Part shown: one piece after another, positions 2,481-62,836 of the stretch | How the letters are laid out: each line of letters opens with the position of its first letter | Numbering within the stretch: the stretch's first letter is position 1 | DNA from: a virus | Length of the DNA: 64,000 nt | Reading direction: 5' to 3' (one strand) | IMG/VR virus record: IMGVR_UViG_3300019487_000026 | Coordinates: 25,344 to 89,343 of that record | Program-made: the position numbers and the translations under genes | The notes under the pieces: model-generated | Seen by the model: only the letters and a program-made list of their open reading frames with translations | What the model was told of the DNA's origin: nothing | Databases searched by the model: none

Positions 2481-2582
2481 TGGAGCGGATACCGAGAGTC
2501 GAACTCGGGACTGGACCTTATTATAAGCACTTTGTCAAATGCTCATAGGCAAGGTTCCGTTTTACCACTAAACTATATCCGC
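2481..2582 (-). tRNA. tRNA-Gly(GCC) with a 28-nt hairpin insert (2520-2547) between positions 36 and 37
   Basis: GCGGATA/TATCCGC acceptor stem, D and T arms and CCA present; removing the insert gives a 74-nt tRNA with loop TT-GCC-AA. Confidence 0.85.
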
Positions 2583-2670: not shown

Positions 2671-3423
2671 ATGCGGTATCGAACGATTTGGTTGAGCGAC
2701 ATACATCTCGGCACTCGCGGCTGCCAAACAGAACAGCTTCTCGATTTCCTGAAGAGCAACGAAAGCGAATACCTCTTCCTTGTTGGTGATATAATTGATT
2801 TCTGGTCGCTAAAAAGAGTCCCATACTGGCCAAGGTCGCACAATACAATTGTTCAAAAAATTCTCCGTAAAGCTCGCAATGGTACCTCGGTGATTTTCAT
2901 TCCAGGCAACCACGATGAAATTCTTCGAAACTATTTGAATCACTCTTTCGGCGACATTCGATTATTTGAAGAATACACACACGTGCTGGCTAATGGAATG
3001 AAGGTACATTGTTTGCACGGCGATATCTTTGATATCATCACAAAATATCATAAGTGGGTGGCCGTTCTTGGTGATGTTGCCTACGATTTTCTTTTGTGGC
3101 TAAATCGCAACTTTAATTGGTTCCGAAAAAAGCTCGGAATGGGCTACTGGTCGATTTCGGCCGCAATCAAACTTGCCGTCAAGCAAGCTGTGAGCTACAT
3201 TAGTGATTTTGAAAACAGTGTGATTGAGTATGCAGAGATCAACAACGTTGAGGCGATCCTGTGTGGTCATATTCATCACGCTGAAATCCGACAAAGTGGA
3301 AAAGTTTTATACATTAACACAGGCGACTGGGTCGAGAGTTGTACGGCAATTGTCGAACACTTTGATGGTCGTTTAGAACTAATACGGTGGACAGATGAAG
3401 CAAAAGATATTGATAATAACTGA
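2671..3423 (+). CDS. LpxH/PlcP-like metallophosphoesterase (putative phospholipase C)
   Basis: SDIHLG, GDIID, GNHD, HGD, GHIH, NTGDWVE motifs. Confidence 0.85.
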   Translation: MRYRTIWLSDIHLGTRGCQTEQLLDFLKSNESEYLFLVGDIIDFWSLKRVPYWPRSHNTIVQKILRKARNGTSVIFIPGNHDEILRNYLNHSFGDIRLFEEYTHVLANGMKVHCLHGDIFDIITKYHKWVAVLGDVAYDFLLWLNRNFNWFRKKLGMGYWSISAAIKLAVKQAVSYISDFENSVIEYAEINNVEAILCGHIHHAEIRQSGKVLYINTGDWVESCTAIVEHFDGRLELIRWTDEAKDIDNN

Positions 3424-15050: not shown

Positions 15051-15126
15051 TGCGGGTTAGAGCAGAAGTAGCTCGCCTGGCTCATAACCAGGAGGCCGTG
15101 GCGTGCAATTCCCACACCCGCTACCA
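15051..15126 (+). tRNA. tRNA-Met(CAT), initiator-like (1:72 mismatch)
   Basis: CCTGG-CTCATAA-CCAGG arm, CCA end. Confidence 0.85.
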
Positions 15127-20156: not shown

Positions 20157-20230
20157 GCGCGATTAGCTCAATGGGAGAGCAATTGTCTCTAAAACTTTGG
20201 TTGAGGGTTCGAGTCCCTCATCGCGCACCA
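20157..20230 (+). tRNA. Amber suppressor tRNA (anticodon CTA)
   Basis: GCGCGAT/ATCGCGC acceptor stem, canonical D and T arms, loop CT-CTA-AA (20187-20193), CCA; anticodon stem has two U-U mismatches. Confidence 0.8.
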
Positions 20231-34250: not shown

Positions 34251-34425
34251 GGTGTACGTGTTGATGCGGAACGTGACTGCGACCCAACACGCAAAAGATA
34301 GTCGGTCGAATGGGCGGGTGTCCGGATGAAACCGTGGCGGGAACGCGGGAGTACAAAAGGCACTTGCGTATTCGTATGAGTACGCATTTTCTTGATCATT
34401 TCTAAGAGTGATCAAGAAAATCAAT

Positions 34426-41704: not shown

Positions 41705-41779
41705 GCGGGTGTCGTATAGTGGCTATTATCTCTGCCTTCCAAGCAGAGGAGGAGGGTTCGAATCCCTCTACCCGCTCCA
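41705..41779 (+). tRNA. tRNA-Gly(TCC)
   Basis: Cloverleaf, CCA. Confidence 0.92.
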
Positions 41780-41793
41780 ATAAGGATTGTGTC

Positions 41794-42234
41794 ATGTACT
41801 ACCACAGTGGAAGTGGGGTCATTGCTTATGACCCTTGGCGTGGCGACATGAAAAGTCGCACCGACTGGTGGTGTATCGTTGATGTCGACAAAGAGATTAC
41901 CCGTTATTATCGCTGGTGGCTTCAGCGGGAGAAACACATCTACCTTCAAAAACCAGCTTGGGATGCACACATCTCAATCATTCGTGGTGAGTACGCTTGT
42001 GCTTCAAACCCCCAACTATGGCGAAAGTATCAGGGGCAGACTGTTAATTTCCAATACGAACACGGACATATCCGTTGTGAACCTGACAAGGATGGAGGAG
42101 TGTATTATTGGATAGATGTAGAGGCCCCATTGCTCAATCAGATTCGTGCCGAGTTTGGACTTCCTCGAGGGTGGCGTTTTCACATCACAATTGGTCGAAC
42201 GTACGACTACGTGGCCCGTGTGCCAAAAAGATAG
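41794..42234 (+). CDS. 2H phosphoesterase-like protein
   Basis: Two HxS/T motifs (AHISII, FHITIG). Confidence 0.7.
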   Translation: MYYHSGSGVIAYDPWRGDMKSRTDWWCIVDVDKEITRYYRWWLQREKHIYLQKPAWDAHISIIRGEYACASNPQLWRKYQGQTVNFQYEHGHIRCEPDKDGGVYYWIDVEAPLLNQIRAEFGLPRGWRFHITIGRTYDYVARVPKR

Positions 42235-47720: not shown

Positions 47721-48866
47721 ATGAAACTGAGTGAGATCTTAGCAGAAGCAGTAATCAAGCCTGAGGCAACCTCAGAGATTATGACTGGACTGCTCGATCT
47801 TCGTGATCAAGTGATAAGTCGTGGCTTGCTGAGTCGCCTTTCGTCACTCTGGAATACAGCTCGTATCCTTTCTATTCTAAACAATGCTCCCTTTGCAAAG
47901 AAGTATGGCATTGAATTTCGGGCACTACCACCTGAAAGTAGTATACGCATTAAGGCTCGTCGCGTTCTCGGTCTCGTTGGTGGTGGTGGATCGTATATGT
48001 ACAATAAGTTCACGGGACAACCAATGGGAATTGAAGTTTTGCTTTCTCGAGAGCTGGGCCGCTTGATGAAATCGAAAGAATCTTGGCACAACGCTGTTAT
48101 TGAAATCATTCATACAATTGACCACGAGTTAGTTCATCGTGAACAACATCGTCGAGGGCGAGCAAAGAATCCTCTCGCGATTCCAAAACCAACCTCTTCG
48201 AAAGGAGATCAACAAAAATACTATGGTGATCCACGAGAGATCATGGCATATGCTCGAGAAGCCGCGCAACAACTTATGCTCAACGGTGTATCACGTCGTG
48301 CTTTGATCCGTTTAATGCAAGACCCGTCCATGCTCGCCGAACCTTCACTGCTAAGCTTTTCCCCAGCTGTCTATCAATATCGGAAAACGTTCTCACCCAA
48401 CCATCCTGTTTATCGCAAATTCGTCCGCTATGTTGTTGACTATTTGAAGGACGAAGAACCAATGGCAGAAGCTACAGATGCTCTGCAAGCATTCCGTACA
48501 ATGATGTATCCCGGAAAAGCGGACTACGATACTCGACCACTTGCCACACGCAAAGGACCAGGAATTTTTATATGGGACGACGAGGGAGATGTTGTCATAC
48601 GATTGATTGACGTTCCTTCGATTGAGAATTATTACGCCCGTCTCGATAGAATTCAGAAACAAAGCACGTCGGGCGAAAAAGCAATTGATGCGTTGTTCAA
48701 TACGGGTAGCGGACATCCTCTGGGTGCCGAAGAGTTGCTGCGCCATAAAGATAAGGTCGAAAAAGCCGAATACGTTCCTTTCACTACGTGGTATAATAGC
48801 GTTCATAACTGGTATAGGTCAGGCCAAGATGATTACGAGCCCTTGCATCAACATTTGCACTTATGA
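47721..48866 (+). CDS. HEXXH-containing late protein (MKLSEILAE start)
   Basis: HELVHREQ...YYGDPREIMAYA. Confidence 0.7.
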   Translation: MKLSEILAEAVIKPEATSEIMTGLLDLRDQVISRGLLSRLSSLWNTARILSILNNAPFAKKYGIEFRALPPESSIRIKARRVLGLVGGGGSYMYNKFTGQPMGIEVLLSRELGRLMKSKESWHNAVIEIIHTIDHELVHREQHRRGRAKNPLAIPKPTSSKGDQQKYYGDPREIMAYAREAAQQLMLNGVSRRALIRLMQDPSMLAEPSLLSFSPAVYQYRKTFSPNHPVYRKFVRYVVDYLKDEEPMAEATDALQAFRTMMYPGKADYDTRPLATRKGPGIFIWDDEGDVVIRLIDVPSIENYYARLDRIQKQSTSGEKAIDALFNTGSGHPLGAEELLRHKDKVEKAEYVPFTTWYNSVHNWYRSGQDDYEPLHQHLHL

Positions 48867-49050
48867 TAAAAACACTTGGACCTGCACAGGCTGTTTTCGT
48901 ACAGCCGATGAGATTGCTCAATGGCCAACGATGACTGAGCACGAGCGCACAGAAACACTCAAGCGTTGTCAGCAAAGAGCCATTGCCGTAAAATACCCTC
49001 TTTCAACTGGTCAATCTCATGGAAATTTGGTGGACAATCACGGTCGTTGA
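48829..49050 (+). CDS. DUF1289-like Cys-rich protein
   Basis: SPCINIC...CTGCFRT.DEI..W. Confidence 0.75.
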   Translation: MITSPCINICTYDKNTWTCTGCFRTADEIAQWPTMTEHERTETLKRCQQRAIAVKYPLSTGQSHGNLVDNHGR

Positions 49051-49253
49051 CTGCAACCAGATAACTTGGGAGCATCGAATATGCTTTGATGCTGGAGAGT
49101 TCTGGGGTGTGGAGAATTTGACCCGATTGTTTCCAGATACAGGCGCTTGGACGTTGTTTTTAGCGCAACTTTTCACGTCTAAAACCGGCCAAATAAATAG
49201 ACTTACAAATAGAGACGGTGAGACTAGCCAGTTGTCATGGGAACAGGATTAGG

Positions 49254-49356
49254 GCTGGCTTAGCTCAGTTGGTAGAGCTCCTGATTTGTTGAATGTCTTT
49301 TTTGAGGACATTGAACAATCAGGAGGTCGAGGGTTCGAGTCCTTCAGCCAGCACCA
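49254..49356 (+). tRNA. tRNA-Thr(TGT) with a 27-nt hairpin insert (49290-49316) between positions 36 and 37
   Basis: Removing the insert gives a canonical 76-nt tRNA-Thr with CCTGA-TTTGTAA-TCAGG. Confidence 0.9.
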
Positions 49357-58914: not shown

Positions 58915-60078
58915 GTGAAAGCACAAGCTGTCATTGGTAGTAATTTCGGTGATGAGGGCAAAGGTCTCATCACCGATTACCTTGTCTCTAAGGCCGAGAA
59001 GCCTGTCGTCATTCGTTTCAATGGCGGAGCACAGGCTGGACATACTGTCGTTCTGCCCGACCAGCGCCACGTCTTTCATCATTTTGGTTCGGGAACATTT
59101 GGTCAAGCACCAACATTCCTCAGTGAGTTTTTCGTAGTCAATCCTCTCCTGTATTTTCGTGAACTAGACCAGCTTCTTGCGAAGAATGTGCGACCCGTTG
59201 TTGTTTTAGATGTACGAGCCGCTCTTACCACACCGTTTGATATGATGATTAACCAAACGGTTGAAATGGCTCGCGGAACTGCTCGGCACGGAAGCTGTGG
59301 TGTCGGTATTAACGAAACAATTACACGAAATGAACGTCCCGAATATCGAACAATTGTTGCAGATCTCTTCGATCAAAATGCCCTTCGTCAAAAACTGATG
59401 CTGATTCGAGATGGCTATGTGAAAACCCGTATCCACCAATTGCTGGGTCGAGACGAGATTATTCCAGATCTTAAGCATGATGTATTGATCGACAACTTTC
59501 TTTTCTTCGGGAAAGAATTACTTAATGCAACATTTCCTGTTGACAATCTATCGTACATGAAGCGATTCAAGACGTTCGTGTTCGAAGGTGCACAAGGATT
59601 GCTACTTGATGAATTTCATTATTGGTTTCCTCACGTGACAAGATCACGCACGGGAATGGTCAATGTCAATAAGATTGCCCATGAGCTTGGTTTGCAAAAA
59701 GTCGATGCATATTTCGCAACGCGGTCCTATCTCACGCGGCACGGAGCAGGTCCATTACCGTTTGAAGCACCCGGCAAAATATATGACAAGATCGAAGATA
59801 CGACAAACATTACAAACGCATATCAAGGATCGCTGCGATTTGCACCACTGAATCTGGATCTACTCAAAGAGAGCATTGCCAGAGAACTTACGGGATCCCA
59901 CATCACACCACACCTTGTGATCACGTGCCTAGATCAGGTGTCTGGTACTCCACAGTATGTTTTGAATAATCAGCTAATCGTTAAAGACGACCTGACAATT
60001 CAGACGAGCAATCTTCTTCCGTTCAAATCCGTCCTTGGTTCATATGGACCAACAAGGAACGATATTAGAACACTTTGA
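58915..60078 (+). CDS. Adenylosuccinate synthetase-like protein
   Basis: FGDEGKG, GGAQAGHT, FEGAQG.LLD, TRHGAGP. Confidence 0.9.
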   Translation: MKAQAVIGSNFGDEGKGLITDYLVSKAEKPVVIRFNGGAQAGHTVVLPDQRHVFHHFGSGTFGQAPTFLSEFFVVNPLLYFRELDQLLAKNVRPVVVLDVRAALTTPFDMMINQTVEMARGTARHGSCGVGINETITRNERPEYRTIVADLFDQNALRQKLMLIRDGYVKTRIHQLLGRDEIIPDLKHDVLIDNFLFFGKELLNATFPVDNLSYMKRFKTFVFEGAQGLLLDEFHYWFPHVTRSRTGMVNVNKIAHELGLQKVDAYFATRSYLTRHGAGPLPFEAPGKIYDKIEDTTNITNAYQGSLRFAPLNLDLLKESIARELTGSHITPHLVITCLDQVSGTPQYVLNNQLIVKDDLTIQTSNLLPFKSVLGSYGPTRNDIRTL

Positions 60079-62014: not shown

Positions 62015-62836
62015 ATGATAGAACATCCTCTTTTCCCCCGTGGAAACATTTACCTTTCTGGTGGTATGCAGTATGCAAAAGATCTAGGAGCAGCTTGGCG
62101 AGACGATTGCTCCCGGCGACTCCAGGAAATGGAATACTACCCTCTTGACATTACGGTACTCGACAAAGCATATTCTGCAGCTTTCGGACATCCGTATATG
62201 TTCTTGGAGACGACTGATCTCCTGCAATACAAATCCAACATTCGTCGTCAAATTGTTCGAGCGGACATTGAGTTGGTTCGACATCACAGTCATGCGTTGG
62301 TTGTGTATTTTGACGAAGCGGCTCGACGGGGGGCTGGAACTCAAAGTGAGTGTCAGGAAGCATATGACTATGATGTCCCGTATTTCATTGTGAACGGATA
62401 CGATAGTTGGAAAGAGGTTCCAGGTTGGATTCGAGCGAATTCAACAAAAATGTTTACTTCTTTCGATGAATTATACGCATATCTGGAACGATTGCCTGCT
62501 GGTATTTTGAGACGTGATGTCTACGGGAATCGACACGTTGACCACTTCTACCTCTGTTCGCTGTGCGGTGAACCTTTTGAAAAGAGTGGTCTACAGTTTG
62601 TCTCAAAGCTGACACCCATGTATTGTAAAGGATGTGTTGATGTCGTCAAGACAACACACGAGAAGCACGCTGATCGATACGAATTTTTCTTATCGCACAT
62701 TCAGCAAGAAATTCAAGCCGATTTAATGCGTCTCAGGTTGGCCGTGCAGTGGGACCATGAGTCCCGTCAGTTAATGAGCGAAATTATTGCTGACGCGGAT
62801 ACCGTTGAAAAAGATTTTATGAAAGGAGATGCCTGA
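62015..62836 (+). CDS. Nucleoside 2-deoxyribosyltransferase-like protein with a zinc finger
   Basis: IYLSGGM...WR...D...GT.SE; CSLC/CKGC. Confidence 0.65.
   Translation: MIEHPLFPRGNIYLSGGMQYAKDLGAAWRDDCSRRLQEMEYYPLDITVLDKAYSAAFGHPYMFLETTDLLQYKSNIRRQIVRADIELVRHHSHALVVYFDEAARRGAGTQSECQEAYDYDVPYFIVNGYDSWKEVPGWIRANSTKMFTSFDELYAYLERLPAGILRRDVYGNRHVDHFYLCSLCGEPFEKSGLQFVSKLTPMYCKGCVDVVKTTHEKHADRYEFFLSHIQQEIQADLMRLRLAVQWDHESRQLMSEIIADADTVEKDFMKGDA

Follow-up and report, generated by a model that had tools for sequence, protein, structure and literature searches.

How could a tRNA gene whose anticodon is followed directly by a 27-nt hairpin yield a tRNA that decodes? This question is raised by a 103-nt locus in a 64,000-nt stretch of viral DNA (hereafter the window), which is the final 64 kb of the 89,343-bp IMG/VR virus record IMGVR_UViG_3300019487_000026 (GC 45.6%; CheckV completeness 35%). 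The locus is a tRNA-Thr(UGU) gene interrupted by the insert TGAATGTCTTTTTTGAGGACATTGAAC (49290-49316, 27 nt). A 355,604-bp contig carries an identical copy of one protein of this record, and the phage is therefore a jumbo phage of about 350 kb. We consider it somewhat more likely than not, judging from sequence comparisons, that the insert is excised by RNase III of the host and that the anticodon loop is then sealed by an ATP-dependent RNA ligase of the phage.

A tRNA-Thr gene interrupted after its anticodon

The Rfam tRNA model (RF00005; gathering score 29; model positions 1-71) assigns 60.4 bits to the complete locus. An earlier note on this DNA had placed the insert exactly at nucleotides 36/37, and the alignments bear this out: when both halves are compared with three intron-less 76-nt phage tRNAs, two of which are annotated as tRNA-Thr, a single gap of 27 columns opens between T36 and A37. 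When the 103 nt were searched with blastn in 50,697 phage records, 823 of these matched, none at 80% query coverage, and the top matches consist of two pieces that span exactly 76 nt and are annotated as tRNA-Thr. Furthermore, the source metagenome includes contigs of other organisms that are identical to the 5′ exon and then continue as intron-less tRNA-Thr sequence. The assignment to Thr(UGU) and the 36/37 boundary thus follow from homology to intron-less tRNA-Thr genes. Removal of the insert leaves a 76-nt tRNA with an encoded CCA and a 7-nt loop, TT-TGT-AA, containing U33, the anticodon UGU and A37, so that the canonical tRNA-Thr(TGT) proposed earlier is confirmed by the loop, the model score and the alignment alike. 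The claim that this is the only Thr tRNA in the window can be extended to the whole record, where the insert-bearing gene is the single Thr tRNA among 30 ARAGORN calls.

With default settings, ARAGORN misses both this gene and the insert-bearing tRNA-Gly gene described below. With the -i option it finds the Thr gene, but names it Val(aac) with an intron at 33/34; this alternative has no support from the alignments to intron-less 76-nt phage tRNAs and was rejected. A separate tRNA with anticodon CAT (window 15051-15123, +; Rfam 48 bits) is also absent from the ARAGORN calls and is the 31st tRNA of the record.

Contigs of two cave-metagenome DNA runs, which may be the source, contained neither the joint nor an insert-free allele of this phage. 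The exact Thr arm pattern was found in no stretch of IMG/VR, and a Thr-specific insert pattern gave one chance match, which is not a tRNA.

Predicted fold of the precursor and the sister insert in tRNA-Gly

The Thr precursor has a minimum free energy of -48.4 kcal/mol, compared with -28.4 ± 3.7 kcal/mol for shuffled sequences (z = -5.45; 0 of 200 shuffles as stable). In the predicted fold, the insert forms a stem of 11 positions, namely U37-A61, a G38·G60 mismatch and nine further pairs, closed by the loop UUU. The first T of the insert thus pairs with its third-last base and leaves a 2-nt AC tail (A62 C63), as had been noted; the description as a hairpin of roughly 10 bp was right as to the hairpin, and its size has to be corrected to 11 stem positions including the G·G mismatch. 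The tail is itself predicted to be paired, since the anticodon stem runs into the insert through U33-A64 (with U34 bulged), G35-C63 and U36-A62, and the anticodon is wholly paired. The result is a continuous predicted helix with one 1-nt bulge and one 1x1 mismatch, in which the two junctions lie 2 bp apart.

The sister case is a tRNA-Gly(GCC) gene with a 28-nt insert, also at 36/37. Its insert boundary, directly after GCC, was set against the phage's own intron-less Gly-GCC gene. This insert has an 11-bp stem, a GACA loop and an AU tail, and the 5′ strand of its stem shares 10 of 11 positions with the corresponding strand of a Thr insert from a different contig (L261).

The fold bears on the most familiar explanation, namely a conventional tRNA intron, which could be a self-splicing ribozyme or else a bulge-helix-bulge (BHB) intron removed by an archaeal-type endonuclease and RtcB. 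The location in the anticodon loop is shared with such introns, and ends of the EndA type were what the earlier note expected. However, 27 nt is far too short for a group I intron, and all 27 of the 27 Rfam matches in the window are tRNAs. The fold has no 3-nt bulges and no 4-bp spacer, its junctions being 2 bp apart in a continuous helix, and the position is 36/37 rather than 37/38. In addition, EndA (PF01974) was found in 0 of 4 phage records and RtcB (PF01139) in 0 of 5 phage records and not in the phage's own record, and the archaeal introns listed in the genome search described below do not share the architecture (0 of 49). We thus regard a conventional intron as very improbable.

A common rule in phages, metagenomes and bacterial genomes

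The common position, size and fold of the Thr and Gly inserts had been taken as more than coincidence, and a survey for hairpin inserts in phage tRNAs had been named beforehand as a check. The survey bears out the first of these: the design recurs in related jumbo phages and in independent metagenome and genome contigs, and the further inserts of the class have conserved processing signals.

Fourteen related IMG/VR records were collected via PhoH and RNA ligase, and every one was scanned with the Rfam tRNA model. One complete 315-kb record (G003), to which 23 of 67 proteins of the Thr-bearing record match at 26-53% identity, has a tRNA-Lys(UUU) with a 33-nt insert of the Thr/Gly build and a tRNA-Lys(CUU) with a 26-nt insert. 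The latter insert is placed at 36/37 because a paralogue 1 kb away has an identical body, the anticodon UUU and no insert. A tRNA of a complete 350-kb record (G007) aligns with two intron-less tRNA-Trp(CCA) sequences with a 28-nt gap, here at nucleotides 35/36. As the hairpin geometry is the same as in the 36/37 inserts, the hairpin, and not the position in the tRNA, appears to set the junctions. A tRNA-Lys(UUU) with a 34-nt insert in a complete 373-kb phage (G015, locus L053) completes a discovery set of six inserts, which comprises the Thr and Gly inserts, the two from G003, the Trp insert and L053.

In all six, insert nucleotide 1 pairs with the third-last nucleotide, giving a 2-nt 3′ tail, and a U·G wobble with the U on the 5′ strand lies at stem pair 9. 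This wobble is nearly the sole U·G in each stem, and only 5 of 500,000 within-hairpin shuffles had any U·G position common to all six inserts.

The rule was then applied to metagenome contigs with a test pattern that fixes tRNA features only (D arm, U33, A37 A38 and T arm) and leaves the hairpin unspecified. This pattern yielded at least 120 stretches at 80 loci; 62 of these loci have an anticodon stem of at least 4 bp and eight have a stem of at least 8 pairs from insert nucleotide 1. Among the matches listed, seven of the eight long-stem loci have a best tail of 2 nt and U·G at pair 9, and they represent four families (two with anticodon UCA, one Pro-UGG and one Thr-UGU), all four with the wobble at this pair. 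The eighth locus is a Tyr(GUA) tRNA with a 7-nt tail. The 2-nt tail, from which a staggered cut is predicted at exon boundaries fixed by homology, is present in 6 of 6 discovery inserts and 7 of 8 listed long-stem metagenome loci.

Species-representative genomes gave at least 120 stretches at 80 loci, of which 62 were usable, 13 of them bacterial and 49 archaeal by record title. None of the 49 archaeal introns among the matches listed has such a long stem. Of the four bacterial long-stem cases among these matches, a Sulfurimonas tRNA-Trp(CCA) and an alphaproteobacterial UCA tRNA fit the rule directly, a verrucomicrobial case fits after a 1-nt slide of the junction that the sequence allows (by reasoning rather than by script), and a case from Pirellulaceae does not fit.

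Viral records at large gave a more restricted picture. A first broad sample of IMG/VR comprised at least 119 stretches at 80 loci, with arms parsed by script and judged by eye; most of these were tandem tRNAs, eukaryote-type Tyr introns of giant viruses or loci with unparsable arms (L070, L084, L097/L100, L124, L072, L071, L062, L085, L103 and L087/L093), and were dropped. In a refined scan, which was complete with 42 stretches, only L053 follows the uniform rule, and L172, L175/L189/L192 and L190 have other shapes.

Ten families could thus be tabulated, six from the discovery set and four from the metagenomes, the latter among the matches listed. The tail is complementary to the final two bases of the 5′ exon in nine of them, with the tail/exon combinations AC/GU, GA/UU, AA/UU, GG/CC, UG/CA and CC/GG; the Gly insert is the exception. 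Stem positions 1 and 3 are A/U pairs in all ten families; seven families have A-U at position 2, and in six a 5′-strand G is paired to C or U at position 4. The U·G stays at pair 9 while stems span 9-14 pairs and loops 3-12 nt. In every one of the ten families, a perfect 7-nt loop containing U33 and A37 is recovered when the insert is taken out. The tail covaries with the anticodon, and an intrinsically weak U·G is retained at one position in all ten, which speaks for a processing signal and against decay. The earlier statement that the Thr and Gly inserts are unrelated in sequence is hence only partly right, given the U·G at pair 9, the A/U pairs at positions 1 and 3 and the 10/11 identity between the Gly and L261 strands. 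Because these arms are nearly identical in tRNAs for different amino acids, the hairpin seems to be portable between tRNAs.

These patterns also bear on the explanation that the insert is never removed, in which case the RNA with its buried anticodon might serve as a decoy for anticodon nucleases or synthetases, as a regulator or as a primer, or the gene might simply have been killed by a mobile palindrome. The wholly paired anticodon of the predicted fold is compatible with such a role, an insert-free Gly(GCC) gene in the array would make the Gly copy dispensable as a decoder, the near-identical arms of the Gly and L261 inserts suggest mobility, and splicing is itself reached by inference. 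On the other hand, the Thr gene is the sole Thr tRNA in 89 kb with 30 tRNA genes, its exon bodies are fully tRNA-like by the model score, and it is difficult to reconcile an unspliced RNA with the restored loops, the covarying tails and the fixed U·G of all ten families. We therefore consider an insert that stays in place to be quite unlikely.

Several UCA tRNAs deserve separate mention. Class I tRNAs with this anticodon, which reads the UGA stop codon, have class hairpin inserts at L215, L224, L230, L267, L292 and L347, the last in an alphaproteobacterial metagenome-assembled genome (MAG). Such genes would escape default tRNA finders, a point of relevance when stop-codon recoding is called. 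Inserts of 24-35 nt that start with A and end in GA before AA are found in many metagenome tRNA-Asn(GUU) genes; these are off the hairpin rule and are probably archaeal 37/38 introns.

Correspondence with RNase III sites

E. coli RNase III cuts both strands of a helix to leave 2-nt 3′ overhangs with 5′-phosphate and 3′-hydroxyl ends, the shortest reactive helix has 11 bp from cut to tetraloop and gives a 28-nt stem-loop product, and the cut stays put when the loop is moved (PMC1540722; the papers cited here are drawn on in excerpt). In the same excerpt, the distal box reads UA and then UG, with the UG stringently needed, and the proximal box, outward from the scissile bond, reads AU/UA, AU, AU/UA, GC (PMC1540722). 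As far as can be judged from sequence, the insert set appears to fit these rules, and the ten families fit the box consensus better than the Thr insert alone, which agrees with it in part. A helix of about 11 bp from predicted cut to loop, within one of about two turns, is present in both the Thr and Gly inserts, each with 11 stem positions that continue through the anticodon stem. Within its boxes, the Thr hairpin has U·G at 9, U-A at 10, U-A at 1 and A-U at 3, along with G·G at 2 and A-U at 4. The ends expected in the earlier note, a 2′,3′-cyclic phosphate and a 5′-hydroxyl, are the opposite of RNase III products.

Enzymes of the carrier phages

RNase III (PF14622) was not found in the phage's own record, which is 35% complete, or in ten related or carrier records. 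The idea of a dedicated phage splicing pathway thus finds no support in its original form, as the searched carrier phage genomes have no gene for a known splicing or double-strand RNA endonuclease. The cutter is more likely to be host RNase III, with the phage contributing only the ligase.

A ligase of family PF09414 is indeed present in all four class carriers (the Thr-bearing record, G003, G007 and G015), and in 0 of 6 near-complete records with other insert geometries; this comparison involves small numbers and was not planned beforehand. The records of L073, L081/L116 and L090 have no PF09414 ligase. The T4 Rnl1 family (PF09511) has no match in the phage's own record. Ligases of the PF09414 kind require 3′-hydroxyl and 5′-phosphate ends, and HNH nucleases produce 5′-phosphate and 3′-hydroxyl ends. 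The ends compatible with the ligase are therefore those of cuts by RNase III or an HNH nuclease, and not those left by EndA.

In the Thr-bearing phage the ligase is a 363-aa protein with an HNH-like N-terminal domain. PHROG HNH families match its residues 21-79, and phrog_24030 ('RNA ligase') matches across both domains with 401 bits. The HNH motif residues C36, C39, H47, H48, N65, C70 and H74 are invariant in 30 homologues of 57-72% identity, as are the motif residues of the ligase domain. The fusion is widespread (5,770 database matches at E <= 1e-5), and 31 records of cultured phages contain it, with orthologues of 44-56% identity in the cultured jumbo phages Caulobacter CcrBL9/CcrSC, Ralstonia RsoM2USA, Salicola SCTP-2 and Acinetobacter ME3. 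It has no NCBIfam match and no relative in the Protein Data Bank (PDB) by sequence (best E 0.01, not meaningful).

This fusion brings up the main competing explanation, in which excision and ligation do occur but the cutter is a phage or host nuclease other than RNase III, for example the ligase-fused HNH domain acting as part of a single cut-and-join enzyme. The invariant HNH motif and the agreement between HNH-generated ends and the needs of this ligase class favour it. Moreover, the distal box is described as not conserved among substrates or species, so that a strict U·G is not a general requirement of RNase III and could equally mark another enzyme (PMC3867540, in excerpt). However, G003 has two class inserts and a ligase orthologue of only 210 aa without an HNH domain, G015 has no fusion orthologue, and the class is also present in bacterial MAG contigs. 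Furthermore, the 2-nt stagger, the 11-bp helix and the box pattern are known needs of RNase III. A cutter other than RNase III is thus, in our estimation, fairly unlikely.

Some other genes for RNA-end enzymes were observed in this phage: a 2H phosphoesterase (2H-SAK; window 41719-42234, +) within the tRNA array, a calcineurin-like metallophosphatase (window 2671-3423, +) 89 bp from the Gly gene, and a Thg1-like tRNA 5′-end enzyme (G000:24569-25447, -).

Proposed maturation route and points that weigh against it

Under host RNase III excision and phage ligation, the insert and the anticodon loop of the precursor would lengthen the anticodon stem into a helix of about two turns, burying the anticodon. 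A double-strand-specific endonuclease, most likely host RNase III, would cut both strands with a 2-nt stagger, after U36 (49289|49290) and after C63 (49316|49317), the cut being placed by its distance from the U·G wobble nine pairs into the hairpin. This would release the 27-nt hairpin with a 2-nt 3′ overhang and leave tRNA halves with 3′-hydroxyl and 5′-phosphate ends, kept together by the tRNA body. The phage ATP-dependent RNA ligase, for which the 363-aa HNH-ligase fusion (G000:17778-18869) is the candidate, would then close the anticodon loop to give the 76-nt tRNA-Thr(UGU).

More tentatively, and with slightly less than even confidence, we suggest that the inserts form a further intron class, a bacterial and viral protein-spliced tRNA mini-intron defined by a portable hairpin with a U·G-anchored RNase III site and processed by the cell's own general double-strand RNA nuclease and an ATP-dependent RNA ligase. 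Its purpose for the phage could be timing, protection from anticodon nucleases or the propagation of a selfish portable hairpin. Phages may, for instance, keep the tRNA inactive, and concealed from anticodon nucleases, until they have produced their ligase.

Several observations count against this route. The tail of the Gly insert is not paired to anticodon bases (C·A and C·U). The inserts at L081/L116, L090 and L073 (which recurs as L367), recognised by eye in the first IMG/VR sample, are continuous helices with tails of 1 or 3 nt, so that a 7-nt loop with a 2-nt stagger is impossible for them, and the Thr-UGU tRNA at L169 has a 36-nt insert with a 6-nt tail. We regard these and L254 as real exceptions to the rule; the odd-tail continuous-helix inserts at L081/L116, L090, L073/L367 and L169 may be a separate processing class. 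The Thr hairpin is off the proximal-box consensus, with G·G at position 2 and A-U in place of G-C at position 4. The UG pair of the published 28-nt product is presumably also the ninth pair, which is an assumption of ours rather than a result. Three related records (G008-G010) and four of five scanned cultured HNH-ligase phages have no tRNA match longer than 91 nt, and the presence of the ligase thus does not predict inserts. Finally, we infer the cutting and joining, and the enzymes responsible for them, from sequence, and RNase III of the host is assumed.

As regards the exceptions themselves, L081/L116 are complete 138-kb phages and L367 lies on the chromosome of Pirellulaceae bacterium SH501; blastn of L081 gave nothing useful.

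No hairpin-class tRNA was found in the five scanned cultured HNH-ligase phages; the fifth of them, Salicola SCTP-2, has only a different, 45-nt insert. This belongs to a second kind of insert, of 45-50 nt with a T-arm-like hairpin (GGTTCAA/GTTCGAATC), which ARAGORN places inside the anticodon, at 35/36, of tRNAs of the Asn(GUU) type.

Coordinates and other features of the phage

The positions of the elements discussed are collected in Table 1.

Table 1. Location of the tRNA genes, inserts and related features (window coordinates unless a record or locus is named)
Feature	Position	Strand	Basis or remark
5′ exon of tRNA-Thr(UGU), nt 1-36, last three the anticodon TGT (49287-49289)	49254..49289	+	alignment, Rfam
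Hairpin insert, 27 nt, candidate mini-intron; 11 stem positions, loop TTT, 3′ tail AC (49315-49316)	49290..49316	+	alignment and fold
3′ exon, nt 37-76, begins A37 A38, ends with encoded CCA	49317..49356	+	alignment
U·G wobble partners at stem position 9 (T 49298, G 49306), then U-A at position 10	49298..49306	+	conserved determinant
tRNA-Gly(GCC) with 28-nt hairpin insert at 36/37 (insert 2520-2547)	2481..2582	-	Rfam, alignment, fold
Sigma-70-like promoter match TTGTCA-17-TAAAAT, upstream of 77-codon open reading frame	48966..48994	+	consensus match only
HNH-ligase fusion, 363 aa	G000:17778-18869 (window about -7565 to -6474, outside)	-	HNH-like N-terminal, PF09414 C-terminal
Second-kind inserts	G003:48532-48654, 48668-48806 (L015); SCTP-2 298729-298850 (L213)		SCTP-2 is a cultured phage
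Metagenome tRNA-Asn(GUU) inserts	loci include L216, L219, L231, L233, L234, L238, L244, L245		

The 77-codon open reading frame (ORF; 49019-49252) stops one base short of the tRNA-Thr gene. One promoter consensus match was found, compared with an average of 1.0 in shuffled sequence. A search for relatives of the 381-aa upstream neighbour of the Thr gene returned none, and a 6-kb stretch had no blastn match in cultured phages. When TAG, TGA or TAA was read as sense, the longest ORFs did not grow in a manner indicative of recoding. The window does contain a stand-alone tRNA gene of the amber suppressor type, with anticodon CUA (20157-20230, +), although genome-wide TAG recoding is not apparent from the ORF lengths.

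Phages that replace adenine with 2-aminoadenine use a pair of adenylosuccinate-synthetase and MazG-like proteins, and homologues of both are encoded in the window (adenylosuccinate synthetase, 58915-60078, +; MazG-like pyrophosphohydrolase, 1766-2407, -). In G003, three tRNAs of 87-89 nt called as Lys(UUU), Thr(UGU) and Ile(GAU) (34337-34423, 88090-88178 and 90050-90138) have a hairpin variable arm, a class II shape that is unusual for these isotypes. Two tRNA-model matches of about 100 nt, one in G007 (62293-62390, L049) and one in the phage Lak-A1 (111254-111357, L337), have normal acceptor and T arms and an unparsable middle.

Significance and comparison with known systems

To our knowledge, tRNA introns of bacteria and phages are thought to be self-splicing only, and enzyme-driven tRNA splicing is textbook knowledge for archaea and eukaryotes only. 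In the openly searchable literature we found neither short hairpin tRNA introns nor RNase III-dependent tRNA splicing described for bacteria or phages. If the proposal is true, excision of a hairpin by RNase III followed by ligation would add a new route of tRNA maturation. The rule is both searchable and testable at the bench: it asks for pairing of nucleotide 1 with the third-last base, for U·G at pair 9 and for a tail that complements the anticodon. Since standard bacterial tRNA finders miss such genes, phage tRNA sets and estimates of codon supply are incomplete.

The closest published observation is that of 'enigmatic' tRNA introns in Lak megaphages, which are likewise inserts in tRNAs of huge phages, including one in a putative tRNA-Thr(TGT), and for which the excerpted text gives no mechanism (PMC6784885). 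If our reading is true, such published inserts would be explained. The Lak Thr insert is, however, described there as possibly tRNA-encoding, and hence is not a short hairpin (PMC6784885, in excerpt). Two tRNA matches longer than 95 nt in Lak-A1 showed no hairpin with a 2-nt tail, one having a long variable arm and the other being unparsable.

Among established introns, group I introns are ribozymes of about 200 nt or more, whereas the Thr insert is a plain 27-nt hairpin. What the two have in common is an intervening sequence in the anticodon loop of a bacterial-type tRNA (PMC3984707, in excerpt). Archaeal and eukaryal BHB introns, which are processed by EndA/Sen with RtcB or Trl1 (PMC4090602, in excerpt), resemble the proposed mini-introns in being short, protein-spliced introns of the anticodon loop with intron-exon pairing and with exons held together by the tRNA; in contrast, the inserts have no BHB motif, are located at 36/37 or 35/36 rather than 37/38 and would be expected to yield 5′-phosphate and 3′-hydroxyl ends.

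With respect to the cleavage step, the inserts are predicted to resemble the minimal E. coli RNase III substrate muR1.1 and the T7 R1.1 site (PMC1540722, in excerpt) in the spacing of 11 bp from cut to loop, in the size of the released piece, about 28 nt with a 2-nt 3′ overhang, in the UA/UG distal box and the A/U pairs beside the cut, and in a cut site that does not depend on the loop. The T7 R1.1 site lies between mRNAs and is only cut, whereas the insert lies inside a tRNA anticodon loop and its flanks would need rejoining; the Thr hairpin further differs from muR1.1 in its G·G mismatch at position 2 and its lack of G-C at position 4. The same need for rejoining separates the inserts from a case in bacterial rRNA.

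RNase III removes helix-borne intervening sequences from bacterial 23S rRNA, and the pieces stay unjoined; a tRNA cut at 36/37, by contrast, could decode only after ligation. Ligation of this kind has a parallel in phage T4, where an anticodon loop cut by PrrC is healed by Pnkp and sealed by Rnl1, so that there, too, a phage RNA ligase reseals a break in the anticodon loop of a tRNA. The T4 system mends damage inflicted by a host defence, whereas here the break would be a regular step in the maturation of a precursor that the phage encodes, and the ligase, with its PF09414 and HNH domains, is of a family different from T4 Rnl1. If true, phage RNA ligases would thereby gain a role beyond the repair of damage.

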